27,404 nucleotides of DNA from a virus (taxonomy: Duplodnaviria; Heunggongvirae; Uroviricota; Caudoviricetes). The DNA lies in the IMG/VR virus record IMGVR_UViG_3300027819_000008, positions 1 to 27,404 of that record; one strand, 5' to 3'. Every line of letters starts with the position of its first letter. Within the stretch, counting starts at the first letter, position 1. The notes below the pieces were generated by a model. That model was not told the origin of the DNA. It made no database searches and worked only from the letters and a program-made list of their open reading frames with translations. A program made the translations under genes and the position numbers. Shown in pieces: positions 498 through 18,495 of this stretch.

Positions 498-3119
498 CTA
501 GCCCGTGAGGGTCACGCGCCGCCTGACCGGCTGACGCAGGCCCCCGAGGTCCCCGACCTGGATGCCGGCGCTGCCGAGCGCGAGCTTGTTGAACGCGAGC
601 GACGCGGCGTCCACCTGGTCGTCGTGGGCCCCGTCGGGGAAGTTGTGGAGCTCGGTCAGGAACGCCTCGTTCCACGGCCCCTCCACCAGCCGCACGTTCT
701 TCGCGCCGGCCTGCGCGGCCAGGGCCCGGGCGCGCGCGAGCTTGTCCCCGGTCACCGGCTCCGCGCGCACGATGAAGCCGGCCAACTGCTGCACGGAGAG
801 CTCCGCGCTCTCCTTCCCGCCGGAGCCCGGCTCCTGCTCCACGTGCACCTCGACCTCCGGGCCGTCCAGCTGGGCGCACTGGAGCATGAGGTCGTTCCGC
901 TCGTGCGCGCGCCACTGCCCGCGGACCACGTCCTCCACGTAGTAGATCCCGTCGGCCTCCGCGAGCTTCACGCCCGCGCTGTAGTCCGGACCCTTCTTGT
1001 CCCGCTTCTTCTTGGCGTCGGCCTCGGTGGCCGCCTTGTCCCAGCCCCGGGCGCGCCGGGCCTCCCGGGGGGCGGCCGGGACGATCCTGAACCACGACCG
1101 GTCGAACACCTGGCCGGCCTCGGCCTTGGCGTTCCAGTTGCCGCCGAGCAGGCGCGACCGCTCGAACGGCGGCAGGTTCATCAGCTTGGCGCGGTACAGC
1201 GGGTCCGCGTTGACGAGCGTCGGGTTGTCCTCGAGCTTGCCCGGGATGAACGTGAGCGAGAGCGGCAGGCTGCCCGGCACGCGCGCCTCGAGCTCCTCGC
1301 GGCTGCCGGCCCACGTCAGGTCCCCGTCGTCCCCGCGCACGAACCACCGCAGGACCCCGGAGCGCTCCGGGATCGGCAGCCCGTCCGCCCCGATCCACCA
1401 GTCGATCAGCTTGCGCAGCCAGCCCCCGACCGGGTCGTCGGCCGGCACCGGGTTGCAGCTGGCCCGCAGGTACGGCCGCACCTGCCCCGAGGGGTCCCGG
1501 TTCCGGGACTGCATGTACCAGAACATCGACTCCCCGAAGCTCTCGAGCTGGTCGAACTCCAGCAGCGGGATCTGGGACCCGTCGTACCCCTGCTTGTCCT
1601 TGTCGTGCTGCAGGTGGGCCAGCTCCACGCGCGCCCCGCTCGGGAACGTCCACTTCAGCGTGGACAGGTTCAGGTCCGCGCCCAGCCGGTAGTAGAGCTC
1701 CTCGCTGTTGTCCTTGAGGCCGCCCGCGTTCGTGATCTCGGGGCTCGTGCGGCGGAACAGGACGGCCCGGAAGCCGGGCAGGTGGCGGTGGCGCAGCGGC
1801 TCGATCAGCAGGGCGCGGGTATTGTGGGTCGGGATCATCGCTCGACCGGCGAGGTAGAGACCCGACGGCGCGTCCACGGTGATGCAGCGCATGGGAACCG
1901 GCGCCACTTCCTGGCACGAAGTGACGTAGCGAAATCGCGTCACCGGTCTAGTACCGAGGCGCTGGCGGCGCCGCTTGCGCTGCAGTCGAAACACAACCTC
2001 GGCGGGAGTCCACGCCAGGTCCCACGCGGGACCACAATCCCGGCCGTAAAGGCGCGCGCGCCTCTCCACAACGTGAACCTTCCAACCGAGCGACGTCACG
2101 AGCTCGAAAATCCCGTCTCGGAGCTCCGGCTTGATCGTTGTAATTGAGACTCCCGTACTCCGCGACGCAGTTCCGTCCGTGTCCATGAGGCCCTGCAGCA
2201 GGGCCAGCCTCTGGTCCCGCGACGCGCGGAGGTAGGGCGCCGGGATGTGCTTGCGACCGAAGACCCCGGTGCGCTTGAGCACGGTCTGGAGTCCCAAGAA
2301 GCCCCAGGTGTACTTCCGATGATAGGACGGCCGGAACCCGCCTCGGGCAAAGGCCCTCATGATGGGTGGGTCGGCGGTCGTCACCGCGGCAGACGTCGTA
2401 GAGCCGTCCCCGAGCCAGCACCCCAGCAGGTATGGGTCCAAGGGGAGGTCAGCCTCCGGGAGCTCCAAGGCCCCGGCAACTGGAATGGCATGGTTCACGC
2501 GACCGTCATGCGTTCGCAGAGTTGCCGCAATCTCTTTGGTCGTCAATACGGACCCGCGCGGGGGGTCGAGATACTCGTACTGCCGCGCCTTGTTGCGCGC
2601 GACAATCATGGCCGTAAACTTTGCGGACTTCTTTCCGCCGGGGCCACCGTTCAGCGCACGACGCGCTCGCGTCATGCTCCGGAACTCGGGCGTCCGCCGC
2701 CATCCCTTTTCGCGCTCGGAATAGCTAAAGGTCAGCCACAGGTGGTCGGCTCCCGCCAGGAACCACGAGCCATCATCAAACTCCATGCGGTAGGACACCG
2801 GCGCGGGATCAATCTCGTGAACGCGCAGTACGCGACACTGCTGACCACTCTCGTTGAACAACACCTCGCCGCGCCTCACGTCACCCATGGTCGTCCAGCC
2901 AGCAGGTGTCGGAAGTGGCGTGTCCAGGGCCAGCAGTTTCCCGCAACCTGCGGCCCCGCCGTAGATCCCGATGTCCGCGGGCGTGGCGAGGAACGCCTCC
3001 TGCGGGCCCGGATGCGGGCGCAGCACGATGGTGACGGGTGGGGTGGCCGGCGAGTTTCGATCTCGCTCCCCCGGGTTCACGACCCGGCGCTCTCCCGACT
3101 GAGCTACGGCCACCGTCAC
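498..3119 (-). CDS. terL: Terminase large subunit (Terminase_6/6C type) interrupted by an intein
   Basis: PQEAFL, Walker A YGGAAGCGK|T, VLFRRT, Walker B LLEFDQL, coupling motif ASCNP; nuclease domain RGWDKAA, EQEPGSGGK, GDKLARA, FPDGAHDDQVDA. The start could be 3119 or a GTG slightly downstream. Confidence 0.93.
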   Translation of the reverse strand: MTVAVAQSGERRVVNPGERDRNSPATPPVTIVLRPHPGPQEAFLATPADIGIYGGAAGCGKLLALDTPLPTPAGWTTMGDVRRGEVLFNESGQQCRVLRVHEIDPAPVSYRMEFDDGSWFLAGADHLWLTFSYSEREKGWRRTPEFRSMTRARRALNGGPGGKKSAKFTAMIVARNKARQYEYLDPPRGSVLTTKEIAATLRTHDGRVNHAIPVAGALELPEADLPLDPYLLGCWLGDGSTTSAAVTTADPPIMRAFARGGFRPSYHRKYTWGFLGLQTVLKRTGVFGRKHIPAPYLRASRDQRLALLQGLMDTDGTASRSTGVSITTIKPELRDGIFELVTSLGWKVHVVERRARLYGRDCGPAWDLAWTPAEVVFRLQRKRRRQRLGTRPVTRFRYVTSCQEVAPVPMRCITVDAPSGLYLAGRAMIPTHNTRALLIEPLRHRHLPGFRAVLFRRTSPEITNAGGLKDNSEELYYRLGADLNLSTLKWTFPSGARVELAHLQHDKDKQGYDGSQIPLLEFDQLESFGESMFWYMQSRNRDPSGQVRPYLRASCNPVPADDPVGGWLRKLIDWWIGADGLPIPERSGVLRWFVRGDDGDLTWAGSREELEARVPGSLPLSLTFIPGKLEDNPTLVNADPLYRAKLMNLPPFERSRLLGGNWNAKAEAGQVFDRSWFRIVPAAPREARRARGWDKAATEADAKKKRDKKGPDYSAGVKLAEADGIYYVEDVVRGQWRAHERNDLMLQCAQLDGPEVEVHVEQEPGSGGKESAELSVQQLAGFIVRAEPVTGDKLARARALAAQAGAKNVRLVEGPWNEAFLTELHNFPDGAHDDQVDAASLAFNKLALGSAGIQVGDLGGLRQPVRRRVTLTG
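1821..2936 (-). mobile_element. 372-aa intein with LAGLIDADG homing endonuclease, class-3 (WCT) type, inserted in the TerL Walker A
   Basis: GK|LLALDTPLPTPAGWTTMGDV (block A), ADHLW (B), LLGCWLGDG (C), LLQGLMDTDG (E), MRCITVD (F), IPTHN|T (G, +1 Thr). Removing it restores GGAAGCGKT. More A/T-ending codons than the exteins. Confidence 0.92.
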
Positions 3120-3132
3120 TCCTCTCAGCAGA

Positions 3133-3204
3133 TGGTTGCGGAGCCGGGACTCGAACCCGGATCGCTGGGCTTATGAGACCCGCGCGGTCCCGCGACCCCC
3201 CGCA
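3133..3204 (-). tRNA. tRNA-Met(CAT), possibly initiator-type, shrunken D-arm
   Basis: TGCGGGG/CTCCGCA-A-CCA acceptor, GGGT-CTCATAA-GCCC, CCGGG-TTCGAGT-CCCGG; D-arm CGCG-GGAC-CGCG. Met vs fMet vs Ile2 cannot be resolved by eye. Confidence 0.8.
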
Positions 3205-3214
3205 GTGTGCCGAA

Positions 3215-3289
3215 TGGTGCGACGGGGAGGAGTCGAACCTCCGCGCCCGGTGTTTCAGGCCGGCGCTCTACCGACTGAGCTACCGCCGC
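3215..3289 (-). tRNA. tRNA-Phe(GAA)
   Basis: GCGGCGG/CCGTCGC-A-CCA; CCGGC-CTGAAAC-ACCGG (C31.A39 mismatch); TTCGACT T-loop. Confidence 0.92.
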
Positions 3290-3309
3290 ACGTTCCCGGT
3301 CCTTCACAG

Positions 3310-3381
3310 TAGCGGCGCGTGGACTCGAACCACACTCGGCGGATTATCGGTCCGCTGCTCTGCCCGATGAGCTACGCCGCT
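3310..3381 (-). tRNA. tRNA-Ile(GAT), no encoded CCA, C33
   Basis: AGCGGCG/CGCCGCT-A followed by CT; GCGGA-CCGATAA-TCCGC; TTCGAGT. Confidence 0.85.
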
Positions 3382-3386
3382 GCAGT

Positions 3387-3464
3387 TGGCGAGGCGGGGA
3401 GGACTCGAACCTCCACCCACCGGGTTTGGAGCCCGGCGCTCTGTCCAGTTGGAGCTACCACCTC
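3387..3464 (-). tRNA. tRNA-Trp(CCA)
   Basis: GAGGTGG/CCGCCTC-G-CCA; CCGGG-CTCCAAA-CCCGG. Confidence 0.93.
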
Positions 3465-3473
3465 GCGTGACGT

Positions 3474-3549
3474 TGGTGCGGTCGGGAGGGTTCGAACCCC
3501 CGACCCTTCCCGTGTAAGGGGAACGCTCTCCCAGCTGAGCTACGACCGC
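3474..3549 (-). tRNA. tRNA-Val(TAC)
   Basis: GCGGTCG/CGACCGC-A-CCA; TTCCC-CTTACAC-GGGAA. Confidence 0.95.
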
Positions 3550-3560
3550 ACGTGAAGAGT

Positions 3561-3636
3561 TGGCGCGGCGAGCAGGAGTTGAACCTGCACGCTTCGGTTT
3601 ACGAAACCGCTGCTCTACCGTTGGAGCTACCGCCGC
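3561..3636 (-). tRNA. tRNA-Thr(CGT), G73 discriminator
   Basis: GCGGCGG/TCGCCGC-G-CCA; GCGGT-TTCGTAA-ACCGA; TTCAACT. Confidence 0.85.
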
Positions 3637-3646
3637 GCGTACCTCA

Positions 3647-3734
3647 TGGCGGAAGGCGCAGGGATCGAACCTGCGCACCCTCTCGGGTGACCTCGGCTTA
3701 GCAAGCCGGCACCTTGCCGCTCGGTCAGCCTTCC
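3647..3734 (-). tRNA. tRNA-Ser(GCT)
   Basis: GGAAGGC/GCCTTCC-G-CCA; CCGGC-TTGCTAA-GCCGA; long variable arm CACCC-GAGA-GGGTG. Confidence 0.94.
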
Positions 3735-3742
3735 GCGCCCGG

Positions 3743-3833
3743 TGGAGGAGGGAGCGAGATTTGAACTCGCACGGGTTTCTGAGGCCCTCGCCGGGATTCG
3801 ACGCCGGTGCCTTACCGTTGAGGCTATCCCTCC
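3743..3833 (-). tRNA. tRNA-Ser(CGA)-like, atypical (U73, G32, C31.C39)
   Basis: GGAGGGA/TCCCTCC-T-CCA; CCGG-CGTCGAATC-CCGG; long variable region; GCGAG-TTCAAAT-CTCGC. Confidence 0.7.
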
Positions 3834-3839
3834 GCATAT

Positions 3840-3914
3840 TGGCGCCGCCCGCCGGATTTGAACCGACGTCGCCGGGTTGAGGGCCCAGCATCCTGACCGC
3901 TAGAAGAGGGCGGC
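3840..3914 (-). tRNA. tRNA-Glu(CTC), C33
   Basis: GCCGCCC/GGGCGGC-G-CCA; CTGGG-CCCTCAA-CCCGG; TTCAAAT. Confidence 0.88.
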
Positions 3915-3929
3915 GCACGTTTACGAACA

Positions 3930-3959
3930 TGGCCCTGTTCACCGCGTCGTGAACAGGGC
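3930..3959 (-). other. Perfect 11-bp hairpin ending in CCA, occupying a tRNA slot (microhelix-like)
   Basis: Minus strand GCCCTGTTCAC-GACGCG-GTGAACAGGGC-CA, followed by the trailer TGTTCG that also follows the CCA of tRNA-Tyr (and ATGTTCG after tRNA-Cys). Confidence 0.6.
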
Positions 3960-3965
3960 GAACAT

Positions 3966-4039
3966 TGGAGACGCCGGAGGGAGTTGAACCCCCGTGGCCC
4001 GCTCTGCAGGCGGGTGCCTCGCCGCTCGGCCACGGCGTC
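3966..4039 (-). tRNA. tRNA-Cys(GCA)
   Basis: GACGCCG/CGGCGTC-T-CCA (U73); CCCGC-CTGCAGA-GCGGG. Confidence 0.93.
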
Positions 4040-4046
4040 TCGAGCA

Positions 4047-4117
4047 TGGTGGAGCCGCAGGGAGTTGAACCCTGTCGGGTCGCTTGCAAGGCGTCCCTGG
4101 CACCCGTGACCGGCCCC
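4047..4117 (-). tRNA. tRNA-Ala(TGC) lacking a recognisable D-stem
   Basis: GGGGCCG/CGGCTCC-A-CCA with G3.U70; GGGACGC-CTTGCAA-GCGACCC; CAGGG-TTCAACT-CCCTG; 71 nt. Confidence 0.82.
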
Positions 4118-4121
4118 GACC

Positions 4122-4197
4122 TGGTGCGACGGGCAGGAGTCGAACCTGCAACCAGAGGATTAAGAATCCCCTGCTCTGCCAGTTGAGCCACCGTCGC
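4122..4197 (-). tRNA. tRNA-Lys(CTT)
   Basis: GCGACGG/CCGTCGC-A-CCA; GGGGA-TTCTTAA-TCCTC. Confidence 0.94.
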
Positions 4198-4202
4198 GAA
4201 CA

Positions 4203-4287
4203 TGGTGCGCAGGGATGGACTCGAACCACCGCAGCCCGAAGGCAGCAGGTCTACAGCCTGCCCCATTTGCCGCTCTGGTACCTGCGC
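4203..4287 (-). tRNA. tRNA-Tyr(GTA)
   Basis: GCGCAGG/CCTGCGC-A-CCA; GCAGG-CTGTAGA-CCTGC; variable arm GCC-TTCG-GGC. Confidence 0.94.
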
Positions 4288-4295
4288 ACGAACCT

Positions 4296-4364
4296 TGGCT
4301 CCTGGAGTCGAACCACGCGCGTGCTGGTTAACAGCCAGCCATGCTACCGCCACATCCGGCAGGA
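4296..4364 (-). pseudogene. tRNA-Asn(GTT) with ~6-nt deletion removing the T-stem/acceptor 3' junction
   Basis: 5' TCCTGCC and GCTGG-CTGTTAA-CCAGC are intact, but the 3' end reads TTCGACT-CCAGGAG-CCA instead of the complementary CCACG-GGCAGGA-G-CCA. Confidence 0.8.
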
Positions 4365-4373
4365 GTGTGTTGC

Positions 4374-4448
4374 TGGAGCGGGCGGCGGGACTCGAACCCG
4401 CGCGCGACTGGGTGGAAGCCAGCGGCTCTGCCACTGAGCTACGCCCGC
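4374..4448 (-). tRNA. tRNA-Gly(TCC)
   Basis: GCGGGCG/CGCCCGC-T-CCA (U73); CTGG-CTTCCAC-CCAG. Confidence 0.94.
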
Positions 4449-4456
4449 CCGTATAT

Positions 4457-4533
4457 TGGCGATCGCGACCGGTCTCGAACCGGCAGCCTCCGAATCGACA
4501 GTCCGGTGCTCTATCCACTTGAGCTACGCGACC
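4457..4533 (-). tRNA. tRNA-Asp(GTC)
   Basis: GGTCGCG/CGCGATC-G-CCA; CCGGA-CTGTCGA-TTCGG. Confidence 0.93.
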
Positions 4534-4567
4534 GCACGACGTTCACGGCTACGACAACCTACCTGAA

Positions 4568-4625
4568 GGGAATTCGGTACGTCCCCACTACGATAACGCG
4601 ACCGTACCCATATGGGAGAATTCCC
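4568..4625. other. Nested inverted-repeat structure in the only long spacer of the tRNA array
   Basis: GGGAATTC(4568)...GAATTCCC(4625) enclosing GGTACG-TC/GAC-CGTACC and the palindrome CCCATATGGG. Confidence 0.5.
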
Positions 4626-4633
4626 GGCGAGGT

Positions 4634-4709
4634 TGGCGGGGCGTGCAGGGGTCGAACCTGCGACCTCCGGGTTCAGAGCCCGGCGCTCTGCCAGCTGAGC
4701 TAACGCCCT
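4634..4709 (-). tRNA. tRNA-Gln(CTG), A1.C72 mismatch
   Basis: AGGGCGT/ACGCCCC-G-CCA; CCGGG-CTCTGAA-CCCGG. Confidence 0.92.
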
Positions 4710-11120: not shown

Positions 11121-12071
11121 TCAGCGGCGACTCATCAGCTCTACTAACTTATCCGCTGCAGCGCAATCCTCTTCGTGCAGGCGCCCGTGGAGTTCCTGCG
11201 CGTCCTCAAACCCGAGCACCCGCGCCGTGTCCTCCGGCGTAGCCCTGGGCCAGGTGCGCGGCGCGTCGGGGTCACGGGTCGCCAGCACCGCCCCAAGTAG
11301 ATAGGCGCACACCCGCGAGCGGGCCGCCGGGCCGGCACCATAGATGCCCAAGGCGCGCCGCAGGACCGGCATCGGATGGGCGTAGTGGTAGGCCACCACG
11401 ACGTCCCGCCACGTGAAGGTGACATGGTCGCTCAGCGCGTCCCACGTGCGGCGCACGCGCCGGAGGTCCGCCGGCTCGTCGATGCTCAGCTTGAGAGCGG
11501 ACCAGTCCCCCTCCTGCGGGGGGAGGCGGAGGTTGAACACGCGCGACTCGTGGCGCCACATCCAGGTCGTCACGTGCTCCCGCTCGTCCGCGGCGGCCTC
11601 ACGGTCGGCCCGGAGCAGCAGCTCCGCGCTGAAGACCTCCATGTCGCAGCCGTCGTAGAACGTCGGGGGGTGGTCGTTGGAAGCGTACGCCGCGCCGGTG
11701 GACCGAAAGAGGGCGAGCAGCTCGCCGGCCAGGTTGGGGTCCAGCATCGGGCAGTCGCTGGTGAGGCGCATGATCACGTCGGCCCCGGTCGCGCGCTGGG
11801 CCTCCACGTACCCGGCCAGGACGTCATTCTTCCCCCCGGGCAGGGAGACCTGGCCGCGCGTCCACCCCACCCCCGCCCCGCGGCAGCGGTTGACGATCGC
11901 GTCGTCCCTGACATCGCGGGTCGTCGTCACGTGGACGACGTCCACCCCGGGAATGTGCTTGGCCCGTGCGAGGACGTGCGTCAGCACGGCCTGGCTCCCC
12001 ACGCGGCGAAGGACCTTGCCGGGGAGGCGGCTGCTGCCCATTCTTGCCTGAATGACCGCCGCCACGAGCAT
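11121..12071 (-). CDS. spsF: SpsF-like nonulosonate cytidylyltransferase (CTP_transf_3) with ~85-aa C-terminal extension
   Basis: VIQARMGSSRLPGKVL, DVLAGY, IMRLTSDCPMLDP, GCDMEVFS, EREHVTTWM, LKLSIDEPADL. Confidence 0.9.
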   Translation of the reverse strand: MLVAAVIQARMGSSRLPGKVLRRVGSQAVLTHVLARAKHIPGVDVVHVTTTRDVRDDAIVNRCRGAGVGWTRGQVSLPGGKNDVLAGYVEAQRATGADVIMRLTSDCPMLDPNLAGELLALFRSTGAAYASNDHPPTFYDGCDMEVFSAELLLRADREAAADEREHVTTWMWRHESRVFNLRLPPQEGDWSALKLSIDEPADLRRVRRTWDALSDHVTFTWRDVVVAYHYAHPMPVLRRALGIYGAGPAARSRVCAYLLGAVLATRDPDAPRTWPRATPEDTARVLGFEDAQELHGRLHEEDCAAADKLVELMSRR

Positions 12072-13033
12072 CACGAAACCTCCAGCACGACCTCGCGGCA
12101 CGACACGTCCGCGCCACCGAATCCCCGCTTAAAGAACTCTATGGCCCGCTCCTTGTCGCTGACCGCAGTCCCCTGCCACCCCAGGCTCGCGCAGGTCACG
12201 CCCAGCTCGGCCAAGGCGCGCAAGGCCTCCCACGCGAGCGCGTGCCCGACGTCGGGCGCAGTGTACGCGCCGGAGCTGTAGTACGCGGCCCCCCGGTAGG
12301 CGTTCCAGTACGCGGCGCCCCACGTCCCGGCGGCGTCCTCGGCCACGACCACGAGCGCGAGGCCAGCCGCCAGCCACTCCCGCTGCAGGCGGTAGGTCGC
12401 GTCGGCCCTGGGATGGTTCGTCATCCGGCGGTGGAGAACCACGTACTGGGAGAACAGCGCGGCCGCCGCCTCGGTGTCCCCAGTGGCCGACGAGATCCGG
12501 TACTTGCGCTGCCCCCGGTGAATCAGCGAGCGGTAGGACGCGCGCACCTCCGCCCACGCCGGGACACCGTCCACGACCCGCTGCGCGGCCGCAACGTAGC
12601 GCACTCCCCGGGCGTGCGCGCCGAGGCTCTGGTGGCGCGCGTCACAGAATGGGTGCTCCCAGAACCGCACCTTGCTCACGCCCTGCCGGCGCGCTTGCCG
12701 GCGGAGTTCCTCCAAGGCAAACCCGGCCGCGGTGGGGGAGGACGAGAGTGGGAGCGGCAGCGGGTCCCCGGAGTACGACAGCTCCCTCACCGGACCGGCC
12801 ACCCCGGCCACCCGATCCACGCGATGGACGAGCACAAGAGGGACGACGGCCAGCACCACGCCGTCATCGCTGAGCACCATGAACGAGGCCTGCTCGTTGC
12901 CCGGGCGAAACGCCAGCTGGTAGTGCAGCCACCCGGAGGTGTGCCAGAACCACCCCCCGGGATGGCTCTGCACGTACGCGTCCCACGCCCGCCAGTCACC
13001 GGGGGTGAAGCTGGCTGCCGCGCGAACCCTCAC
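12071..13033 (-). CDS. FemAB-related / GNAT-fold acyltransferase
   Basis: WDAYVQSHPGGWFWHTSGW...LAVVPL; VRASYRSLIHRG; AYYSSGA; ALAWEALRALAELG..ASLG; IEFFKRGFGG. Confidence 0.72.
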   Translation of the reverse strand: MRVRAAASFTPGDWRAWDAYVQSHPGGWFWHTSGWLHYQLAFRPGNEQASFMVLSDDGVVLAVVPLVLVHRVDRVAGVAGPVRELSYSGDPLPLPLSSSPTAAGFALEELRRQARRQGVSKVRFWEHPFCDARHQSLGAHARGVRYVAAAQRVVDGVPAWAEVRASYRSLIHRGQRKYRISSATGDTEAAAALFSQYVVLHRRMTNHPRADATYRLQREWLAAGLALVVVAEDAAGTWGAAYWNAYRGAAYYSSGAYTAPDVGHALAWEALRALAELGVTCASLGWQGTAVSDKERAIEFFKRGFGGADVSCREVVLEVS

Positions 13034-13926
13034 CGGCCCGACGCCACGCGGTAGCGCAAGTACCGGGTCATCGGCTCCTCGGCCGGCATCTGGCTGAGGT
13101 GACCGGCGCCGCAGAGGACCTCGGCCTGCCGGATGTTCGCGACGTAGACCGCGGCCTCCTCGGGCGTGCGCGCCACCTTGAAGTCGGCGTTGTCCTCCCG
13201 CGTCTCGCGGAGCCGCGCGTGGAACTCCACGATGCGCGCCCCGGCCGCGACCGCCAGCGCGCCCGTCATCGGGTGGCGCGTGTGGTCGGAGTAGCCGGCG
13301 AAGTTCACATCCCGGGTGAAATCCGAGAGCAGCGCGCCGAGATTGGCCTGCTCGTCGGGGCAGGGGTAAGCACTGACGCAGTGGAGCAGGCTCAGGTGCT
13401 GTAGCATGTCCAGGTGCCGCGCCGAGAACCTCTCGGCAACCTGCACGTACTGACTGGCCGCCTCCCGGGCGCGCCGGGCCCCGCCCATGCCGGCGCTGAG
13501 GATCACCGGCTTGTCCGGGAAGTCCGCGTGCATCGCGACGAAGTACACGTCGCCCGACTCGAAGCTGCTGACCTTGAATCGCCGCACGTACGGCGCGACG
13601 ACGGCGATGTCCTCCGGCAGGTAGATGGTGCACATGAACTCCAACCCCACGACCTCCGCCGCGAGCTGGAAGACCGTCAGCCACTCGCGGGGGAACGCCA
13701 GCGCGCGGTACGCATCCAGGTAAGGCAGCGCGCGCCGACGCTCGACCAGCCGCTCCGGCGAGGACAGCCACTGGAACTTGACCGCGTCGGCCCCGACGTC
13801 CCGGGCCAGCTTGATCAGGTCCACGGCGCGGTTGATCGCGAACTCGTGGGGGTAGTCGTGGCAGGCCGCGGCCTCCATGATCACGAAGGTCCGGCGCGTC
13901 GTGGTACCCGTGCCGTTGGTGATCAC
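13030..13926 (-). CDS. pseI: Nonulosonic acid synthase (NeuB/PseI family), no C-terminal SAF/AFP domain
   Basis: FVIMEAAACH, GADAVKFQ, FKVSSFE, KPVILSAGM, LLHCVSAYP, GYSDHT, AVAAGARIVEFH; 298 aa. Confidence 0.88.
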   Translation of the reverse strand: MITNGTGTTTRRTFVIMEAAACHDYPHEFAINRAVDLIKLARDVGADAVKFQWLSSPERLVERRRALPYLDAYRALAFPREWLTVFQLAAEVVGLEFMCTIYLPEDIAVVAPYVRRFKVSSFESGDVYFVAMHADFPDKPVILSAGMGGARRAREAASQYVQVAERFSARHLDMLQHLSLLHCVSAYPCPDEQANLGALLSDFTRDVNFAGYSDHTRHPMTGALAVAAGARIVEFHARLRETREDNADFKVARTPEEAAVYVANIRQAEVLCGAGHLSQMPAEEPMTRYLRYRVASGR

Positions 13927-14207
13927 GAGTCGCCTCCCGGCGCCACGTGCCGAACGTCCACGGGGGGTGGCCCGACGCTGGTCGGCAGGATCGCGTGGGT
14001 CAGGTTGCCGGTCACGACGCTGCCCGGCTTGATGTCGCTGCCGGGCGGCACGACGACCTCGATCATGATCTTCCCGCCGTCCTCCACCCGGACCCGACCG
14101 GTCGCCCGCAGCCCCCAGAGGCCGGTGACCCATGCAGCAGAGGTCTGAAACGTCGCCACCTGGATCCCGGCCAGCTTCGCCGGCGCTGAGGCCTTCTCGA
14201 TTGCCAT
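13923..14207 (-). CDS. Hypothetical 94-aa beta-rich protein
   Basis: ATG start, GTGA-coupled to the neuB-like gene; VRVEDGGKIMIEVVVP. Confidence 0.65.
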   Translation of the reverse strand: MAIEKASAPAKLAGIQVATFQTSAAWVTGLWGLRATGRVRVEDGGKIMIEVVVPPGSDIKPGSVVTGNLTHAILPTSVGPPPVDVRHVAPGGDS

Positions 14208-14226
14208 TTATCTACCCGTCTCTTTC

Positions 14227-14454
14227 TTACTTCAGCCAGTCCAGGTGTCTCGGCCAGCTCTGCTTCGGAATGTTGGCCCAGGCGAACGGCACCTCGCGCA
14301 GTGGAACCTCTATCCGTTTGCCCCACGTAACGGGCAACTGCCCTGAGCAAGGACCGCCAGAGGCGCCGCCGTAGAGCAACAACGACCCACCGCCGTCTAG
14401 TACGTTCGGAAAACCGATCAGCGACCCACCACCGTCGAGGACGCAGCCACTCAC
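14227..14454 (-). CDS. Hypothetical 75-aa protein with a VLDGGGSL repeat
   Basis: VSGCVLDGGGSLIGFPNVLDGGGSLLLYGG...; GTGA-coupled to the aminotransferase stop. Confidence 0.55.
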   Translation of the reverse strand: MSGCVLDGGGSLIGFPNVLDGGGSLLLYGGASGGPCSGQLPVTWGKRIEVPLREVPFAWANIPKQSWPRHLDWLK

Positions 14455-15848
14455 TGCGTCGCCCGCCACGGAGGCACGGGGCTGATCGGGTCGCCCTCGA
14501 TCTGGCTCCGCACCGTCCCGTTCTTGATCGCAGTCACCGTTACCTCCATCGCCTCGCGGCACGCCCGCAGCGTCTCCCCGAGCTCCGCGTGCCCGTGCGC
14601 CAGCGACACGTTGAGCCCGTCCGGGTGGAACAGCACGCCGCGCCGGGCACACTCCTGGAAGAACAGCGACGCGCGGTGCCGGTTCTTCTTGGGCGTAATT
14701 GCTATGTGGCCACTGAGCCCAAACGGGCCCTCCTCCACCTCGTCCCACACGATGCGCGGGTGCGGCGGCTGCCCCTCCATGCGCGTCGGCGCGCCGCACA
14801 CCTTGGCCAGCGTGTTGTAACGGTCCATGAGGATTCGCCCGGTGATCCACATGTGACCCGTCACGTCGTCGTGCCAGAGCGCTTTGGTATACGGCGGATG
14901 CAGGATCGGCACCGAAAGAGGTCTCTGCGCGTACCGCTCCATGACGGCCGACGCCGCCGCGAGCCCGACGCAGTCGCCGCCGAAGGTCCCTGACGCGAGG
15001 ACGGCGTGCCGCATGACCTCGGCCCTGCCCACCAGCGCGGCGATCGGGTAGCCGTTGCCCATCCCCTTCCCGAACGTCGCGAGGTCAGGCGTGACGCCGC
15101 AGAGCGCCTGGTACCCGCCGGCGTGCCAGCGGAAGCCGGTCACCATCTCGTCGAAGATCAGGACGGCGCCGATCCTGGTCGCGCGCTCGCGCACGCCCTC
15201 CAGGAAGCCGGGCGCCGGCGCCTCGAACAGCGTCGGCTCCATGATGATGGCCGCGACACCACCCGTTGACGCGACGGACTGCTTGATACGGCCTCCCTCC
15301 ACCCACGCCTGGGGGCCCTCTGCCCAATCAATCGCCTCGTCCAGGGACCCCAGGTCGTTGTACCTGAACGTCCGCACCAGCCCCTTCATGGCCTGCGGCA
15401 CGCCGGGGGAGTGCTCGCGCGTCGCCGCGTACCAGCTGTGCCACGAGTGGTAGCCGCACACGAGCACGACCTCGCGGCCGGTGTGCGCGCGGGCCGTGCG
15501 GATCGCCGCCTCCGTCGCCTCGCTGCCGGTCTTCAGGTAGCGGACGGCCTCGGCGCACGGGATGAGGGCGTGGAGCTGCTCGGCCACGCGCTCCTCCAGC
15601 TTCACGTCGGGCAGCGAGAAGATCGGGCCGCGCTCGACCTGCCGGCGCACGGCCTGGTCCACGTCCAGGTCATGGTAACCGAGGCTGATCGCCCCGAGCG
15701 CGCAGATCCAGTCGATGTAGTTCGCATCGTCCGTGGCTCTGACGCGCGCGCCGCTTGGGAGCGCCCACTTGATTCCGGCCGGGTACGCGCCCGGGAACCT
15801 GGACCTCATCTTGGACAGCGTCTGGGCGCCCCCGACGACTCGGCTCAC
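14451..15848 (-). CDS. Class-III PLP aminotransferase (GSA-aminomutase-like, sugar-cluster type)
   Basis: GGAQTLSK, YIDWICALGAISLGY, KTGSEATEAAIRTAR, GYHSW, IMEP, LIFDEMVTGFR, PDLATFGKGMGNGYPIAALVG, SGTFGG; own GGAGG SD and GTGA overlap at 15848. Confidence 0.9.
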   Translation of the reverse strand: MSRVVGGAQTLSKMRSRFPGAYPAGIKWALPSGARVRATDDANYIDWICALGAISLGYHDLDVDQAVRRQVERGPIFSLPDVKLEERVAEQLHALIPCAEAVRYLKTGSEATEAAIRTARAHTGREVVLVCGYHSWHSWYAATREHSPGVPQAMKGLVRTFRYNDLGSLDEAIDWAEGPQAWVEGGRIKQSVASTGGVAAIIMEPTLFEAPAPGFLEGVRERATRIGAVLIFDEMVTGFRWHAGGYQALCGVTPDLATFGKGMGNGYPIAALVGRAEVMRHAVLASGTFGGDCVGLAAASAVMERYAQRPLSVPILHPPYTKALWHDDVTGHMWITGRILMDRYNTLAKVCGAPTRMEGQPPHPRIVWDEVEEGPFGLSGHIAITPKKNRHRASLFFQECARRGVLFHPDGLNVSLAHGHAELGETLRACREAMEVTVTAIKNGTVRSQIEGDPISPVPPWRATQ

Positions 15849-17027
15849 GGCAGCACCTCCGGTAACTTGAACTCGAAGATCGGAATGTCCTGTGCGTGGC
15901 TCAGCCGCTCGGCCTCCTGGGAGCCGACGTGCACCCACCGGCCCTCCCGTGACACGAGCGGCATGCGCGCGGCACAGGTCGCAGGCGGCGGGCTGAGGTC
16001 CGGCGGCCTTGGGCTGGGGGCCCCCGCCGGTCGTACAGCCCCGGGGGTGGAGTTGCTGCACGACCGAGAGCTCCACGAGCTCAAGCGCCCCGCCGTCCGG
16101 TCGTACCAACCACGCCGGCTCCAGCGTCCACCGCTCCGGCAGCGCCGCGCCGGGCGCGAGCTCCAGCGCCCAGCCGTCACCCAGCCGCCTGACCCGCCCG
16201 AGCGGCGGGAGGCTCAGACTGTGGTGGTCTAGGACGAGGGGGTTCTTGAAGAAGTTCTCCACCAGGATCGGGATGGCGGTGGAGAGCGGAGGACTCGAAC
16301 CTCCCGCCTCAGTAGCTTGCCCCTCGGTCTTGGCACCGAGGGCTGGGCCCGCCTGCGCGGCCGCCCGGCCGCTTGCTCCCCTCGCCCGCTCCCACGCCAG
16401 CAGCACGTCGCCGGCGCCGCACTCGACTAGGCGCACGCCGCCCGAGTCGTCGACCGCGTGGACGTCCCAGATCGTGCGGCGGTCGGCGCCGCCGATGCTG
16501 CCGCCCGCGTTCGTGTGGTGGGGCACGTGCGCGCGGCATAGGTCGCAGCGCTGGCCGGCCACCTGCATGAAGGACATGCCCCACATGCCGAAGACCTGGT
16601 TCCACACCCCACGGTCCCACGCGAACCCCGCGCGCTGGAACGCGCGCTGCGAGGGGACGTTGCCGGAGTGGATGACCGCGAGGAGGTCCCGCGCCCCGAG
16701 GCGCACCGCCTGCTCGGCCGCCATCTGAATCATCGGCGTCGCCAGGCGGTGGCCGCGCCACTCGGGCGCGATCGTGATGCTCACCTCCACCAGGTCGGTC
16801 CCCACGTGGTCCAGCCGATACGTCCCGACGGTCCCGTACATGGCCCGGCTGGCGACCATCAGCCGGCGGTCGGGTGCGCCCAGGGAGGTGCGCAGCCACG
16901 CGAGGTGCTGGACCTCCCGGACGGGCTCGGAAACGACTGACCACTGCAGCGTGCCGGGATCGTTGCGCCACGCCAGCAGGAGCCCCGCGTCGTCTAGGGT
17001 CGCCGGGCGGGCGGTCAGCGCGATCAT
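15845..17027 (-). CDS. PseH-like GNAT N-acetyltransferase fused to a mosaic C-terminal region; coding frame changes near 15964
   Basis: RPATLDDAGLLLAWRND...HLAWLR...VGTYRLD...EVSITIAPEWRGHRLA...IHSGNVPSQRAFQRAGF. The frame continues ~210 aa; codon bias moves at 15964 to the frame (MPLVSREGRWVH...) that ends at TGA 15845. Confidence 0.75.
15964..16548. repeat. 21-nt direct repeat (20/21 identical), 564 bp apart, each encoding CDLCRAH
   Basis: tgcgcgcggcacaggtcgcag (15964-15984) vs tgcgcgcggcataggtcgcag (16528-16548). Confidence 0.85.
16274..16381 (-). ncRNA. tRNA-like element (Ala identity, no canonical anticodon arm) embedded in the ORF
   Basis: GGGGAGC/GCTCTCC-A-CC(G CCA) acceptor with G3.U70; 6-bp arm GCGGCC-GGGC-GGCCGC; CCCTCGGT-GCCAAG-ACCGAGGG; perfect T-arm GGAGG-TTCGAGT-CCTCC. 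Confidence 0.6.
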
Positions 17028-18052
17028 ACCTCGCGCACCATGCGGACAAGCTCCGCCACGTCCAGCCACCGGTGCGGCGCGTCGCTGGTGTAGGCCGCGG
17101 TCCGCCGCACGGAGGTCGGGTGGTCCCAGGCCTCGCGCCACGAATGGTGCGCCGGATAGATGACCGCCTCGGCGAAGTCGTTGGTGTAGCCGTCCAGCAG
17201 GTAGGTGCGCGAAGGCTCTTCGCGGGACAGCAGCGCCTCGTGCAGCTTCTCTCCGCCCGGGCGCAGGCCGACCACGATGCGGGGACCCGCCCGCATCAGT
17301 CCCGCGAACTCCTGCTGCGCGATGCGAGTTCGCCAGTCCCGCTCCACCGCGTCGGCCAGCGCCGACATGGAAGCGGCCGGGAGCAGCGGCACGAAGACCT
17401 CCCCGCCCTCCATGCGCTCGAGCGAGCGCATGACGAAGCGCGCGGCTTGTGAGAGCGTGATGATGAACCGGGTCATCAGCGGGTCCGTGATCGCCAGGGG
17501 CTCCCCGCGCCGCAGCTGGTCACGCCAGACGTGGACCACGCTGCCGCGCGAGCCGAGGACGTTGCCGTAGCGCACGCACGCGACGCGGGTCCCCCGGGGC
17601 TGCGCGTAGGTGTTGCTCTGCACCGCGTAGCACTCCGCGACCGCCTTGCTCATGCCGTAGAGGTTGGTGGCCTCGCAGGCCTTGTCGGAGGACACGACGA
17701 GGACCCGCCCAACACCGACCGCCGTGGCCGCACGAACCACGTTGATTGTCCCCTGCACGTTGGTCTTGACGATCTCCTCCGGGGAGTAGACCGAGTGGCC
17801 GATCCGCTTCAGCGCGGCCGCGTGGACCACGACGTCGCAGCCCCGGAAGACCTCCTCCAGGCGCTGCTCGTCGCGCACGTCGGCCAGCTGGCACTTCAGC
17901 GGCGCGTAGTCCGCGTACCGCTCGGCGAGGTCCCCGCCCTTGACCTCGTCCCGGGACAGCGCGACCAGGCGCGTCACCGGCCAGCGCTCGCGCAGCAGCT
18001 CGATCAGCGCCCCACCCAGCGACCCCGTCGCGCCCGTGATGGCGATCTTCAC
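17024..18052 (-). CDS. pseB: UDP-GlcNAc 4,6-dehydratase (inverting), PseB/FlaA1 family
   Basis: ITGATGSLG, ALSRDEVK, VVHAAALK, KTNVQGT, VSSDKACEATNLYGMSK, VRYGNVLGSRGSVV, ITDPLMTRF, GGEVFVP, GLRPGGEKLHE. Confidence 0.93.
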   Translation of the reverse strand: MKIAITGATGSLGGALIELLRERWPVTRLVALSRDEVKGGDLAERYADYAPLKCQLADVRDEQRLEEVFRGCDVVVHAAALKRIGHSVYSPEEIVKTNVQGTINVVRAATAVGVGRVLVVSSDKACEATNLYGMSKAVAECYAVQSNTYAQPRGTRVACVRYGNVLGSRGSVVHVWRDQLRRGEPLAITDPLMTRFIITLSQAARFVMRSLERMEGGEVFVPLLPAASMSALADAVERDWRTRIAQQEFAGLMRAGPRIVVGLRPGGEKLHEALLSREEPSRTYLLDGYTNDFAEAVIYPAHHSWREAWDHPTSVRRTAAYTSDAPHRWLDVAELVRMVREV

Positions 18053-18495
18053 TCTCGCGTCTTCTTCCCCGGGCGCCGGGCCCGCTTCTTGGACTTCTCC
18101 ACGTACTCGGCCACCGCCTTGCGGAGCTTCGGCGAGTCCGCGAGCTTGGAACACAGGGCCCGCCGCCACGCCGGAAGGTCGGTCAGGTGGCAGATGAGCG
18201 TCTCCCAGATGAACTGCAGCGCCTGCGCCGGCAGCACCGCAAGCAGCGGCGTCGGGCGCCGGCACGACTCTTTGACGAGCACCACGGGGACGCGGCCGGT
18301 GTCGATCCCGAGGACCGTCATCTCCTCCACCAAGCGCGTCAGCTCCGCGAGCGGCTGCTTGGCCGGGTTCTTGACCTGTGCGGCGAAATGGTCGGACTTG
18401 ACGTCCACCCGCCCGCCCTCGTTGGCCCAGTGCCGCGTGGAGCCGAGGCAGGCCGCCGCGTCGCGCTCCACCTGCTTCCAGCCGGTCTTACTCAC
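18049..18495 (-). CDS. PD-(D/E)xK nuclease, Holliday-junction-resolvase-like
   Basis: GWKQVERDAAACLG..R...VDVKSDHFAAQVK; PVVLVK. Confidence 0.55.
   Translation of the reverse strand: MSKTGWKQVERDAAACLGSTRHWANEGGRVDVKSDHFAAQVKNPAKQPLAELTRLVEEMTVLGIDTGRVPVVLVKESCRRPTPLLAVLPAQALQFIWETLICHLTDLPAWRRALCSKLADSPKLRKAVAEYVEKSKKRARRPGKKTRE

Follow-up and report, generated by a model that had tools for sequence, protein, structure and literature searches.

A conserved, anticodon-less tRNA-like RNA element read in frame within a phage sugar-synthesis operon

Why should an operon for sugar synthesis carry, in the middle of a long open reading frame, what looks like the acceptor stem and T-arm of a tRNA? 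In this work we analysed a stretch of DNA of 27,404 nucleotides from an uncultured groundwater phage (the window), in which a first-pass annotation made from the letters alone had described a tRNA-like fold hidden in a protein-coding frame. Every structural detail that it listed is present in the sequence: the acceptor with G3.U70, A73, the D-like arm, the arm capped by GCCAAG, the T-arm and the 3' end A-CCG-CCA. The parts of the element are as follows.

16277-16381, minus strand: anticodon-less tRNA mimic, very probably of alanine type, 105 nt including the CCG tail, with a cloverleaf as its minimum free energy fold
16375-16381, minus strand: 5' acceptor strand GGGGAGC, pairing with 16281-16287 over 7 bp, with G3.U70, G2-C71 and G1-C72
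16357-16372, minus strand: D-like hairpin GCGGCC-GGGC-GGCCGC, 6-bp stem and 4-nt loop GGGC
16306-16348, minus strand: long irregular arm of 43 nt replacing the anticodon arm
16321-16342, minus strand: tip of the long arm, an 8-bp hairpin with the 6-nt loop GCCAAG
16288-16304, minus strand: T-arm GGAGG / TTCGAGT / CCTCC, 5/5 T-stem pairs
16277-16287, minus strand: 3' acceptor strand GCTCTCC (16281-16287), A73 (16280) and CCG (16277-16279)
16274-16276, minus strand: second CCA, 3' of the CCG tail, read from the sequence

The window element shares with canonical tRNAs all seven acceptor pairs (one of them G.U), all five T-stem pairs, the TTCGAGT loop and A73. No 7-nt anticodon loop can be drawn in it, and at the sole hairpin tip an 8-bp stem carries a loop of 6 nt (or 8 nt). 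Its folding energy by itself does not reach significance (z = -0.97), since the DNA has 75% GC; the combination of motifs, described below, does. Two further claims about its surroundings were borne out, namely the loss of codon bias, as the third-position GC in the frame of the ORF falls from 0.9-1.0 on either side to about 0.70-0.73 across 16391-16257, and the distance from the tRNA array, which ends at 4709, about 11.6 kb from the element. Contigs identical to the window over 15800-16700, with zero indels, occur in two groundwater metagenome DNA runs, and no RNA run is listed as containing the region; these metagenomes may be the source of the contig, so the identical letters give no independent confirmation and are silent on expression.

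Does the element really lie within one protein? It is in frame, as had been claimed, but not inside a single gene: the 896-aa ORF 14451-17141 is a run-on of several genes without intervening stops, namely a gene with a GNAT and a Zn domain, then the element, then an orphan ORF and lastly a class-III aminotransferase; near 15966 the frame changes. The operon has the following features.

11121-18265, minus strand: nonulosonic (pseudaminic-type) acid operon containing the element (Pfam)
17024-18265, minus strand: PseB-like dehydratase (Pfam)
16374-17030, minus strand: gene for a PseH-like GNAT acetyltransferase with a Cys/His domain, no stop codon ahead of the RNA element
about 16623-17018, minus strand: GNAT part of this gene (Pfam Acetyltransf_3, E 8e-17)
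16374-16559, minus strand: Cys/His domain of ~60 aa, CxxC..PHHTN..SIGG..DLH..EC, found in 65 homologue clusters
15990-16273, minus strand: orphan coding stretch of ~95 aa, in frame with the element, third-position GC 0.83-0.97
15848-15967, minus strand: 39-aa ORF of the +1 frame, a homologue of the Cys-rich tail 3' of the element in a related contig (L006)
14451-15850, minus strand: class-III aminotransferase (Pfam)
13030-14133, minus strand: NeuB (Pfam)
12071-13033, minus strand: homologue of Fem-family (tandem-GNAT) aminoacyl-tRNA-dependent transferases, by profile and predicted fold
11121-12101, minus strand: cytidylyltransferase (Pfam)

This gene set recurs in related phage contigs. Homologues of the GNAT and Cys/His protein that are free of the element end at a stop 3-30 residues past the domain. 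The orphan stretch 15990-16273 has no evident start or ribosome-binding site of its own, no homologue among 1.8 billion representatives and no Pfam or PHROG family, and the CxxC of the 39-aa ORF 15848-15967 is in another frame than in the L006 tail, an apparent frameshift.

Could such a fold have arisen by chance? In the 100.8-kb genome there are 18 copies of the strict T-arm motif (15 in the tRNA array, one in the window element and two elsewhere), against an expectation of about 0.9 per simulated genome, and a T-arm with an adjacent 7-bp acceptor appeared in 0 of 60 simulated genomes. The chance control that the first-pass annotation had proposed thus came out in favour of the element, and a chance origin is excluded by the simulations together with the homologues described below. 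Integrating elements, as is well known, frequently bring along the T-arm and acceptor end of a tRNA or tmRNA gene, and the element might accordingly be taken for an attP site copied from the 3' part of such a gene in the host. However, the element has both acceptor strands and these covary, the genome, which is rated complete, showed no integrase of the tyrosine or serine type, and the exact T-arm and acceptor sequence of the window had no match in 185,579 species genomes. Like the chance match, the attP copy is largely refuted and we give it hardly any credence. Fragments of tRNA and tmRNA genes are mentioned by Hudson, Lau & Williams (2014, PMC4131195).

The standard detectors proposed as a further check made no call at their thresholds. 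ARAGORN called nothing at the element site or at the homologous sites and no tmRNA in the whole genome. Rfam at gathering thresholds gave nothing at the site; RF00005 was unmatched both at its gathering score and at E<=10, RF00023 (tmRNA) did not report the window element, and none of the Y-RNA families matched at E<=10. The sole tRNA-clan match kept in the relaxed Rfam search was tRNA-Sec, RF01852, with 20.1 bits (E 0.18, threshold 47) and many non-canonical pairs in the alignment. The proposed tRNA-Sec geometry did not hold up either: besides this low score, the acceptor/T arrangement is 7/5 and not the bacterial 8/5 and there is no UCA loop, so that only the 6-bp/4-nt D-like arm is similar. 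A bacterial Y RNA (YrlA) was rejected because the 5' and 3' ends of the element are the acceptor stem itself and not a Ro-binding stem. A degenerate T-loop/acceptor pattern found 45 loci in IMG/VR, all of them genes of the tRNA-Ala(UGC) type within the tRNA clusters of low-GC phages and outside this family. A single-protein locus search of IMG/VR gave zero relatives, and BLAST of the region against GenBank phages matched the aminotransferase alone.

Is the fold conserved? We found 13 further elements at loci of the same kind in phage contigs from groundwater and soil, which brings the family to at least 14 with the window element, all in related, uncultured phages of high GC. They lie directly after, or less than 1 kb from, homologues of the GNAT and Zn gene, although all members were found via one protein domain and the shared position in a sugar operon is therefore partly built into the search. 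A covariance model (R1) gives the window element 28.8 bits (E 0.005 over 155 kb), no better than the 32.8 bits of the phage's own odd tRNA-Ala. Its closest relative, L060:372-449 (L060b), has an identical acceptor strand GGGGAGC and an identical T-loop, and compared with it the 22-nt hairpin of the window (16321-16342) is an extra insertion. Across the family the elements measure 65-105 nt. A similar D-like hairpin is present in L068 and L004 and missing in the short relatives, which show a bare GGGA-type loop (GGGAU, GGGAC or GGGAG after the acceptor). The loops of the middle arm range from 4 to 16 nt, and the middle is free in length and sequence, never forming a 7-nt anticodon loop.

The pairs were counted twice, in an anchor-based table of 12 elements and in a model-fitted alignment of the 13 relatives with the window element left out, which leans toward the modelled structure; these were used instead of full-length MAFFT alignments, as the latter misplace the 5' ends of the long forms. 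In the table, three acceptor pairs (5:68, 6:67 and 7:66) show double-sided changes, whereas 2:71, 3:70, 4:69 and base 73 are invariant. The T-stem is paired in all 60 cells, and covariation is seen in four of its five pairs (49:65, 50:64, 51:63 and 52:62). The T-stem is again fully paired in the 13-relative alignment, with four of five pairs covarying; there 94.9% of all cells are paired and double-sided changes occur in 7 of the 12 stem pairs, values that were reached in 0 of 500 shuffles, and slid controls were 45-69% paired. Pairs 3:70 and 4:69 are constant in this alignment too, and 2:71 is constant but for a single fitted exception. Every one of the 14 elements has the T-loop UUCGA, G3.U70 and A73, and nearly all have G1-C72 and G2-C71. 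The 3' tail in the 12-element table is CCA in nine, CCG in two (the window and L065) and CUA in one, each time after A73 (12/12). The encoded residues shift along with the stem (GG..PP, AG..PA, GR..RP) and the pairing is retained; as the residues change while the pairing holds, the constraint is on the RNA and not on the protein. The element is kept with this covariation across proteins that are merely 45-70% identical. We conclude that it is a real conserved RNA element under RNA-level constraint, in which pairing of the acceptor and T stems survives through compensatory changes. The constraint that had been suspected from the codons is thus seen in the homologues, where the pairings are preserved.

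It could still be argued that the element is a decaying relic, a tRNA-Ala or tmRNA-derived gene which lost its anticodon arm and whose DNA now only encodes a flexible linker or tail that joins protein modules. The window copy, with CCG for CCA, the 22-nt extra hairpin and the irregular arm, would suit such an origin, as would the rejection by standard detectors and the fixed, stop-free frame, which shows that there is constraint on the protein. However, 7 of 12 stem pairs have changed on both sides in a compensatory way, with residue replacements on either side, the opposite of what is expected of a purely protein-coding linker or a decaying pseudogene; the T-loop and the identity marks are invariant across hosts whose proteins have diverged this far, and no relatives were seen that keep the linker peptide through synonymous changes that break the stems. 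We regard a relic as very improbable. The earlier proposal of a captured tRNA or tmRNA-TLD remnant survives in part: the tRNA-like domain (TLD) of tmRNA is the nearest described relative, but a recent capture or remnant does not agree with conservation and covariation over such protein distances.

How do the RNA and the reading frame share this DNA? The frame with the T-arm at codon position 1 is stop-free in 14 of 14 elements, whereas the other two frames have stops in 7 and 4 of the 14, respectively. This frame always yields G-G-S-x-P-x-x-S-T, and the length and start phase of the elements covary so that it is preserved. The upstream gene reads through 12 of the 14 elements, that is, 10 of the 11 adjacent to a GNAT gene and both adjacent to a DUF4031 gene; in the window the predicted read-through peptide is GGSSPPLSTAIPILVENFFK. 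As the upstream gene reads the element in frame in most relatives, the term 'dual-coding' used by the first-pass annotation describes it fairly. Gene callers are misled by this arrangement and report fused proteins with a 'GGSxPPAST' tail.

Bacterial RNase P recognises an acceptor/T-arm minihelix with an RCCA-type tail, and an element of just this build stands exactly at a gene junction. Could it then be a processing signal only, a fold which attracts RNase P and RNase Z for cleavage of the long operon transcript between cistrons and releases an RNA of no further role? G3.U70 is kept in 14 of 14 elements while the neighbouring acceptor pairs covary, although RNase P does not need it, and the invariant alanine identity marks would be left unexplained. 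Moreover, the cut would leave the upstream gene without a stop in 12 of the 14, which is costly unless intended. Processing as the sole purpose is, in our opinion, improbable.

The tmRNA model of Rfam, RF00023, aligns five relatives (L001, L004, L057, L065 and L066) over model positions 1 to 374 with the central ~300 positions deleted, at 25.5-32.8 bits (E 1e-7 to 2e-10 in those searches), all below the gathering score of 47. In mycobacteriophage DS6A the R1 model has one match, at 28478-28560 with 32.6 bits; DS6A is listed as a 'TLD only' tmRNA (tmRNA Website tmID 11587; PMC4131195). The elements have what defines this class, namely a full acceptor helix with alanine identity and a T-arm, a variable helix for the anticodon arm and no coding part. 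It is highly probable that the element is a functional, alanine-type, non-decoding RNA. The best explanation that we can offer, although a tentative one, is an in-frame RNA gene for an anticodon-less tRNA-Ala mimic of the TLD-only tmRNA kind that acts on SmpB and EF-Tu, and the most likely function is that of a non-decoding, alanine-charged mimic of the tmRNA TLD. Processing, charging and stability of this RNA are inferred. Host RNase P would cut the operon transcript at the 5' end of the element, and the 3' end would be brought to CCA by trimming or repair. The RNA would then receive alanine from host AlaRS, for which a G3.U70 acceptor helix is sufficient. Lacking an anticodon, the RNA would be unable to decode and may instead engage host SmpB and EF-Tu at stalled ribosomes, as the tmRNA TLD does, competing with or short-circuiting the tagging by host tmRNA. 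No SmpB gene was found in the phage, so host SmpB would be required. The same DNA would be translated as a harmless Gly/Ser/Pro/Ala/Thr linker or tail, and this translation would keep the ribosomes, and the coupling to downstream genes, going through a strongly structured insert of ~100 nt.

That the target is the SmpB/trans-translation system is a suggestion we make with considerable reserve. The biochemistry of the operon gives no call for interference with ribosome rescue. A molecule similar to the TLD-only RNA strongly inhibits tmRNA, perhaps through titration of SmpB (PMC4131195). Should such titration work 'whether or not chargeable' (PMC4131195), the absolute conservation of G3.U70 and A73 would ask for a role that depends on charging, and an alanine donor for the Fem-like enzyme, or tag-less rescue, would suit this better.

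The main rival to the tmRNA-TLD mimic is indeed such a donor, an AlaRS-charged, non-decoding alanine carrier for the Fem-like transferase 12071-13033, which would transfer alanine to the amino group of a nonulosonic-acid intermediate. The operon neighbour is of Fem type by its profile, which matches FemX of Weissella viridescens, an Ala-tRNA-dependent alanyltransferase, in the PDB (E 6e-4, nearly full length, with the alignment end on a conserved Lys), and by its predicted fold. The AlphaFold2 model has a mean pLDDT of 91.9, and its top Foldseek matches, aminoacyl-tRNA-dependent transferases without exception, are FemX, FemA, aminoacyl-tRNA-dependent peptide synthases and MprF/PGS, one of the matched structures having been solved with an amino-sugar substrate. 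FemX requires the acceptor arm only, with G2-C71 as its main determinant (PMC2655667), and in the 12-element table neither this pair nor G3.U70 varies. The idea of non-proteogenic donor tRNAs is established (PMC7826273), and strict charging marks with a freely varying middle are the pattern of a pure donor. However, in six related phage contigs (L081-L086) the Fem-like gene adjoins NeuB and no such RNA lies within 7-21 kb, and the 16-kb parent contig of the element-bearing L059 has, judged from the gene list only, no ~320-aa gene after NeuB; apart from the window, the element-bearing contigs are too short to judge co-occurrence. The DS6A RNA exists without any Fem-like gene. In the window the element lies 3.2 kb from the Fem-like gene and adjoins a different enzyme, and the tRNA-Ala(UGC)-like gene of the phage array (4047-4117) could be the donor instead. 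We consider the donor role possible but unlikely.

What would the two roles mean? Whether the RNA interferes with ribosome rescue or donates alanine for glycan tailoring, either would be new for how phages use the tRNA-charging machinery of the host, and the Fem-type neighbour in a sugar operon makes the purpose of the mimic directly testable by biochemistry. Perhaps, although we doubt it, the element is a virus-encoded anticodon-less alanyl carrier whose Fem-like partner places alanine on the amino group of a pseudaminic- or legionaminic-type sugar, while its DNA also yields a linker peptide. If so, a nonulosonic acid would for the first time be known to be tailored in an aminoacyl-tRNA-dependent way, and the element would be the first dedicated non-decoding donor RNA. 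It would also give a concrete job to the orphan 'TLD-only' RNAs seen in many phages, and the RNA gene would be deliberately in frame, one stretch of DNA giving both a linker peptide and a chargeable RNA.

How does the element compare with known systems? With canonical and Sec tRNAs it shares the 7-bp acceptor, the 5-bp T-stem, the UUCGA T-loop, the discriminator and a cloverleaf-like minimum free energy fold, but it has neither a 5-bp/7-nt anticodon arm nor UCA. The staphylococcal non-proteogenic tRNA-Gly, which feeds FmhB/FemA/FemB (PMC7826273), and the Ala-tRNA-Ala of FemX are tRNA-shaped aminoacyl carriers withheld from translation for the sake of Fem-family transferases, and a Fem-family gene is present in the operon here. 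The staphylococcal donors, however, are complete tRNAs with anticodons, whereas here the Fem-like link is one of operon neighbourhood, with co-occurrence unsupported in the few long contigs. In jakobid mitochondria there are tmRNAs without the message part that keep G3.U70 and A73, and a tag-free release of stalled ribosomes has been proposed for them (Jacob et al. 2004, as in PMC3590771); unlike our elements, these are organellar, mostly two-piece, circularly permuted and outside ORFs. The DS6A RNA, like the window element, comes from a phage of a high-GC host, is ~80-100 nt long, and has an acceptor starting with GGGG, G3.U70, A73 and a canonical T-arm, with no anticodon and no tag message. 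It is nevertheless intergenic, 11 nt past a stop codon, in a temperate phage, whereas the window element sits in a stop-free reading frame. The window element has in addition a D-like stem and a long extra arm, and the sequence homology seen between the two covers the tRNA-like core that they share. DS6A has none of the sugar-operon genes that surround the window element, and such RNAs therefore exist without a Fem partner.

The tRNA-like domain of tmRNA, the nearest described relative, has in common with the elements the alanine identity set, the T-arm and, in most relatives, an encoded CCA. The short relatives have a stem-less GGGA-type D-loop followed by a helix in the place of the anticodon stem. 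The SmpB-contacted D-loop of tmRNA is stem-less and GGAUUCGAC-like; after the acceptor the short relatives have the GGGA-type loop and the window copy a 6-bp D-like hairpin. The window element and L060b depart from a typical TLD in their D-like stem and long arm, the want of a GGAUUCGAC-type loop and the CCG tail, and none of the elements has a message-like domain, pseudoknots or a tag ORF, which would not fit into 65-105 nt. Alanine tRNA mimics that lack message and anticodon are already listed in one mycobacteriophage and in organelles. This work adds a family, overlooked by standard tRNA and tmRNA finders, with clean covariation evidence. What is new is that the RNA lies in frame inside a protein gene of a sugar-synthesis operon, and that it has a Fem-like neighbour; it is the first example we can document of such an RNA running in frame through a protein gene with the frame conserved across relatives, and it makes one ask how a single transcript can serve both translation and RNA processing.

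The tRNA-like fold described in the first-pass annotation is present at 16381-16277 on the minus strand, with acceptor, hairpin, long arm, T-arm and tail all in place:

Element start at 16381 (-): 5' acceptor strand GGGGAGC (7 nt), then two bases
Next (-): D-like hairpin of 6 bp with loop GGGC, then eight unpaired bases
Next (-): irregular arm of 43 nt, its tip an 8-bp hairpin with a 6-nt loop, then one base
Next (-): T-arm GGAGG/TTCGAGT/CCTCC
3' end (-): acceptor strand GCTCTCC, then A, CCG and CCA

This cloverleaf-like shape is the minimum-free-energy fold of the element, and its folding energy is ordinary for 75% GC (z -0.97). ARAGORN made no call at this site, its 17 tRNA-type genes in the window all lying within 3027-4709, and Rfam at curated thresholds returned only array tRNAs from the window and no match at the element. 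The suggested tRNA-Sec geometry was not supported, since the only related Rfam match (E<=10), to the tRNA-Sec model, reached 20.1 bits against a threshold of 47. Could the pattern have arisen by chance? The genome, a virus contig of 100.76 kb (70% GC, rated complete) of which the window forms the first 27.4 kb, contains 18 copies of the strict T-arm motif (15 within the tRNA array, the element and two others), with 0.87 expected per genome in first-order Markov genomes. The combination of T-arm and adjoining 7-bp acceptor helix 45-129 nt upstream appeared in none of 60 such simulated genomes, and the pattern seen at first reading is therefore real and non-random. An attP reading is very improbable, as both acceptor strands are present and there is no integrase and no host match.

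The relatives were reached through protein. An exhaustive profile-free search with residues 195-405 of the 896-aa frame around the element, against 1.8 billion representative proteins, gave 65 matches, all to a Cys/His domain (C-x2-C..PHHTN..SIGG..DLH..EC) whose end coincides exactly with the element start. Most homologues end 3-30 residues past the domain; five extend into a tail with G-G-S-x-P-P-A-S-T, which is the protein reading of the T-arm and acceptor strand. Contigs of the tailed homologues and a metagenome-contig scan with the Cys/His-domain alignment yielded 13 relatives:

Directly after the Cys/His domain: contigs L001, L002 (=L003), L004, L005, L006, L057 (=L058), L065, L066, L068 (=L070)
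Two in tandem after the Cys/His domain, 9 nt apart: L060:268-362 and L060:372-449
After a DUF4031 gene, a few hundred bases further on: L059, L061

Most come from 1-4-kb contigs and, because a single protein domain served to find them all, the neighbourhood they share is in part a product of the search. The elements measure 65 to 105 nt; no two share the same middle, and a 7-nt anticodon loop is absent throughout. Of these, the second L060 element (L060:372-449) is the nearest to the window's, the two sharing the GGGGAGC strand, the T-loop and the GCAAGCU and UGAG motifs; the window's carries an extra 22-nt hairpin. The tandem L060 elements are two different alanine-type mimics, and one ORF reads through both. 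The Cys/His domain itself (~55-60 aa, C-x2-C..PHHTN..SIGG..D-R..DLH..E-C; window 16374-16559 (-); 65 representative clusters) occurs free-standing or fused to PseH-like GNATs, and matched no Pfam or PHROG family.

Pairing was compared in a table of 12 elements anchored at their ends, which is independent of the bias of an alignment towards the modelled structure. The T-stems read GGAGG/CCTCC, GGCGG/CCGCC, GGTGG/CCACC, GCCGG/CCGGC, GGCCG/CGGCC, CGAGG/CCTCG and CCGGG/CCCGG; all 60 of the 60 cells are paired, with double-sided changes in four of the five pairs. In the acceptor, 5:68 is G-C or A-U, 6:67 is C-G or G-C, and 7:66 is C-G, U-G, U-A or G-C, plus four G/G mismatches. G2-C71, G3.U70, G4-C69 and A73 are identical in all 12, and 1:72 is G-C in 11, with a single G.U. 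The model-fitted alignment of the 13 relatives, which omits the window's element and leans towards the modelled structure, has one fitted exception at 2:71; 94.9% of its cells are paired (shuffles: 80.0 +/- 1.9), double-sided changes occur in 7 of 12 stem pairs, and none of five measures was reached by any of 500 shuffles. Sliding the partners by 1-3 columns lowers pairing to 45-69%. Since changes in either stem strand replace the residues encoded there (GG..PP, AG..PA, GR..RP), selection is on RNA pairing and not on the peptide. Homologues preserve the pairings with compensatory changes, which bears out the RNA-level constraint proposed earlier; the loss of pairing in every homologue, named at first pass as a refuting outcome, did not occur. 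Our comparisons establish a structured RNA element that is conserved, lacks an anticodon and keeps its alanine identity set invariant. Given the compensatory changes, it is very improbable that the element is a relic, and a role as a processing signal only is scarcely more plausible, since RNase P does not need G3.U70.

The element had been placed inside a single protein-coding ORF. This did not stand, as the 896-aa frame 14451-17141 comprises several genes, of which the GNAT+Zn gene, 16374-17030 (-), lies directly upstream of the element:

Residues 42-173: GNAT domain (Pfam Acetyltransf_3)
After the GNAT domain, before the element: Cys/His domain, ~60 aa
Directly after the element: orphan stretch, ~95 aa
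After the orphan stretch: 39-aa ORF, the coding signal shifting to the +1 frame near 15966
Last part: class-III aminotransferase

The reported loss of G/C-ending codon bias was confirmed, third-position GC falling from 0.9-1.0 on either side to 0.70-0.73 across the element. Ten of the 11 elements that follow a GNAT+Zn gene have no stop before or inside them (L057 is the exception), and both DUF4031-following elements (L059, L061) are also read through. The frame with a codon starting at the first T-arm base is stop-free in 14/14 elements, while the other two contain stops in 7/14 and 4/14; the codon phase of the first base shifts together with the length of the element (2 or 0 modulo 3), so that this frame is preserved, and L068 alone is read in another. 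The encoded peptide is a linker rich in Gly/Ser/Pro/Ala/Thr. What follows the element differs: an HNH endonuclease in L002, its ATG overlapping the read-through stop, a small Cys-rich domain fused in frame in L006, L065 and L066, a second element after the first of L060, and the orphan stretch in the window. We read this conserved open frame as genuine double use of the DNA, for RNA and for peptide, in line with the dual coding suggested at first pass. The open frame would let ribosomes cross a structure of -35 to -56 kcal/mol in a tightly coupled operon.

The DNA immediately 3' of these elements is a variable spot; the gene in L002 (388-870), which starts at the overlapping ATG, is an HNH/NUMOD3 homing endonuclease. 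In the window, a 21-nt direct repeat (20/21; 15964-15984 and 16528-16548, 564 nt apart) encodes CDLCRAH in each copy; one is the CxxC of the Zn domain and the other precedes the 39-aa ORF, whose L006 homologue has its own CxxC in frame. The repeat looks like the trace of a short gene conversion, with a +1 frameshift as its result. Assembly-graph depth falls to 16, against 22, over 15898-15986, a hint of a minor variant at that place. The only sequencing runs that cover the element's region are DNA runs, possibly those from which the contig was assembled. The large terminase ORF (498-3119 (-), 873 aa) has LAGLIDADG/Hom_end matches mid-protein (residues ~302-356), which suggests an intein or inserted homing endonuclease.

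A covariance model, R1, was built from seven elements and recovers the other six at 35-48 bits; it scores the window's element at 28.8 bits (E 0.005 over 155 kb, R1 E-values being rough owing to a shortened calibration) and gave no further convincing match elsewhere in the phage genome. Several tRNA-shaped sequences were also seen. An array gene at 4047-4117 (-), missed by ARAGORN and by the Rfam gathering score, resembles tRNA-Ala(UGC) (acceptor GGGGCCG/CGGCTCC, G3.U70, A73, CCA, loop CUUGCAA; the anticodon stem carries one mismatch and the D region is abnormal; R1 32.8 bits). A tRNA-Ala(UGC)-like gene starting GGGGGCAGT and ending GGCCTCCACCA, with an unusual D region, is found in IMG/VR contigs L011, L018, L023 and L045-L050; it is common among low-GC phages, and of near-identical contigs ARAGORN reports it in some but not in others. 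At genome 49856-49924 (-) (=L076:2957-3025), between genes and upstream of one with a primase-like zinc-finger motif, lies a second tRNA-shaped element, again lacking a normal anticodon arm (perfect 7-bp acceptor GGGAACG/CGTTCCC, perfect T-arm, tail U-CCU; R1 21.6 bits), which is not of alanine type because of its G3-C70. ARAGORN's tRNA-Arg(tcg) at 3027-3096 (+) overlaps a minus-strand tRNA-His, has mismatched stems and is probably an antisense artefact; near the far contig end, at genome 100080-100152 (-), it called a tRNA with a four-base anticodon (cttg).

The genes around the element form a nonulosonic-acid operon, all in one orientation:

17024-18265: PseB-like dehydratase
Then: PseH-like GNAT; aminotransferase
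13030-14133: NeuB
12071-13033 (-): Fem-like gene
11121-12101: cytidylyltransferase

The Pfam match of the Fem-like gene is only borderline (Acetyltransf_6). Its 13-homologue profile matches FemX of Weissella viridescens (E 6e-4) over nearly the whole length, the alignment stopping at the conserved Lys of the F-K motif, and the AlphaFold2 model of the product (mean pLDDT 91.9) has as best fold matches FemX, FemA, aminoacyl-tRNA-dependent peptide synthases and MprF/aminoacyl-PG synthases. By profile and predicted fold, the gene is thus a homologue of the Fem-family, aminoacyl-tRNA-dependent transferases. FemX is an Ala-tRNA-dependent alanyltransferase for which the acceptor arm suffices and which reads G2-C71 (PMC2655667), and staphylococci maintain a non-proteogenic tRNA-Gly for Fem enzymes (PMC7826273). 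Could the element donate alanine to the transferase? The two share an operon, and the charging marks and G2-C71 are strictly conserved. However, NeuB/Fem-like/cytidylyltransferase clusters in six other phage contigs have no such RNA within 7-21 kb, and the 16-kb L059 parent contig has the element but, by its gene list, no ~320-aa gene after NeuB; we consider this role rather unlikely. The transferase in the element's operon is a new point and offers a testable function. On another phage contig, a weak candidate (L086:16258-16340; 18.9 bits, E 0.19; acceptor GGGGAUU/GAUCUCC with G3.U70, A73, CCA, non-canonical T-loop) lies ~7 kb away from a Fem-like gene of 31% identity.

What, then, may the element do? 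It is very likely to be a functional, non-decoding alanine mimic: RNase P/CCA processing would release the RNA, and the host AlaRS would alanylate it. The Rfam tmRNA model spans five relatives (L001, L004, L057, L065, L066) from first to last position with ~300 central positions deleted, at 25.5-32.8 bits, below the gathering score; these keep the tRNA-like domain (TLD) of tmRNA and lack its message and pseudoknots. On mycobacteriophage DS6A, R1 gave one match (28478-28560, just after gp33, 32.6 bits); this phage is listed as 'TLD only' by Hudson, Lau and Williams (PMC4131195), who remark that a molecule of similar type is a strong inhibitor of tmRNA, perhaps through titration of SmpB, and it carries its RNA without any of the sugar genes. 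The architecture of the short relatives, the tmRNA alignments and the DS6A precedent together favour a tmRNA-type role, and by this analogy the element might, tentatively, act on SmpB or ribosome rescue. Jakobid mitochondria likewise retain message-less tmRNAs with the same alanine identity marks (PMC3590771). With these precedents the RNA class is already known, a phage example of the TLD-only alanine tRNA mimic being already on record; new are a family of 14 members backed by covariation, its long-armed form in the window and the conserved in-frame embedding in protein genes.
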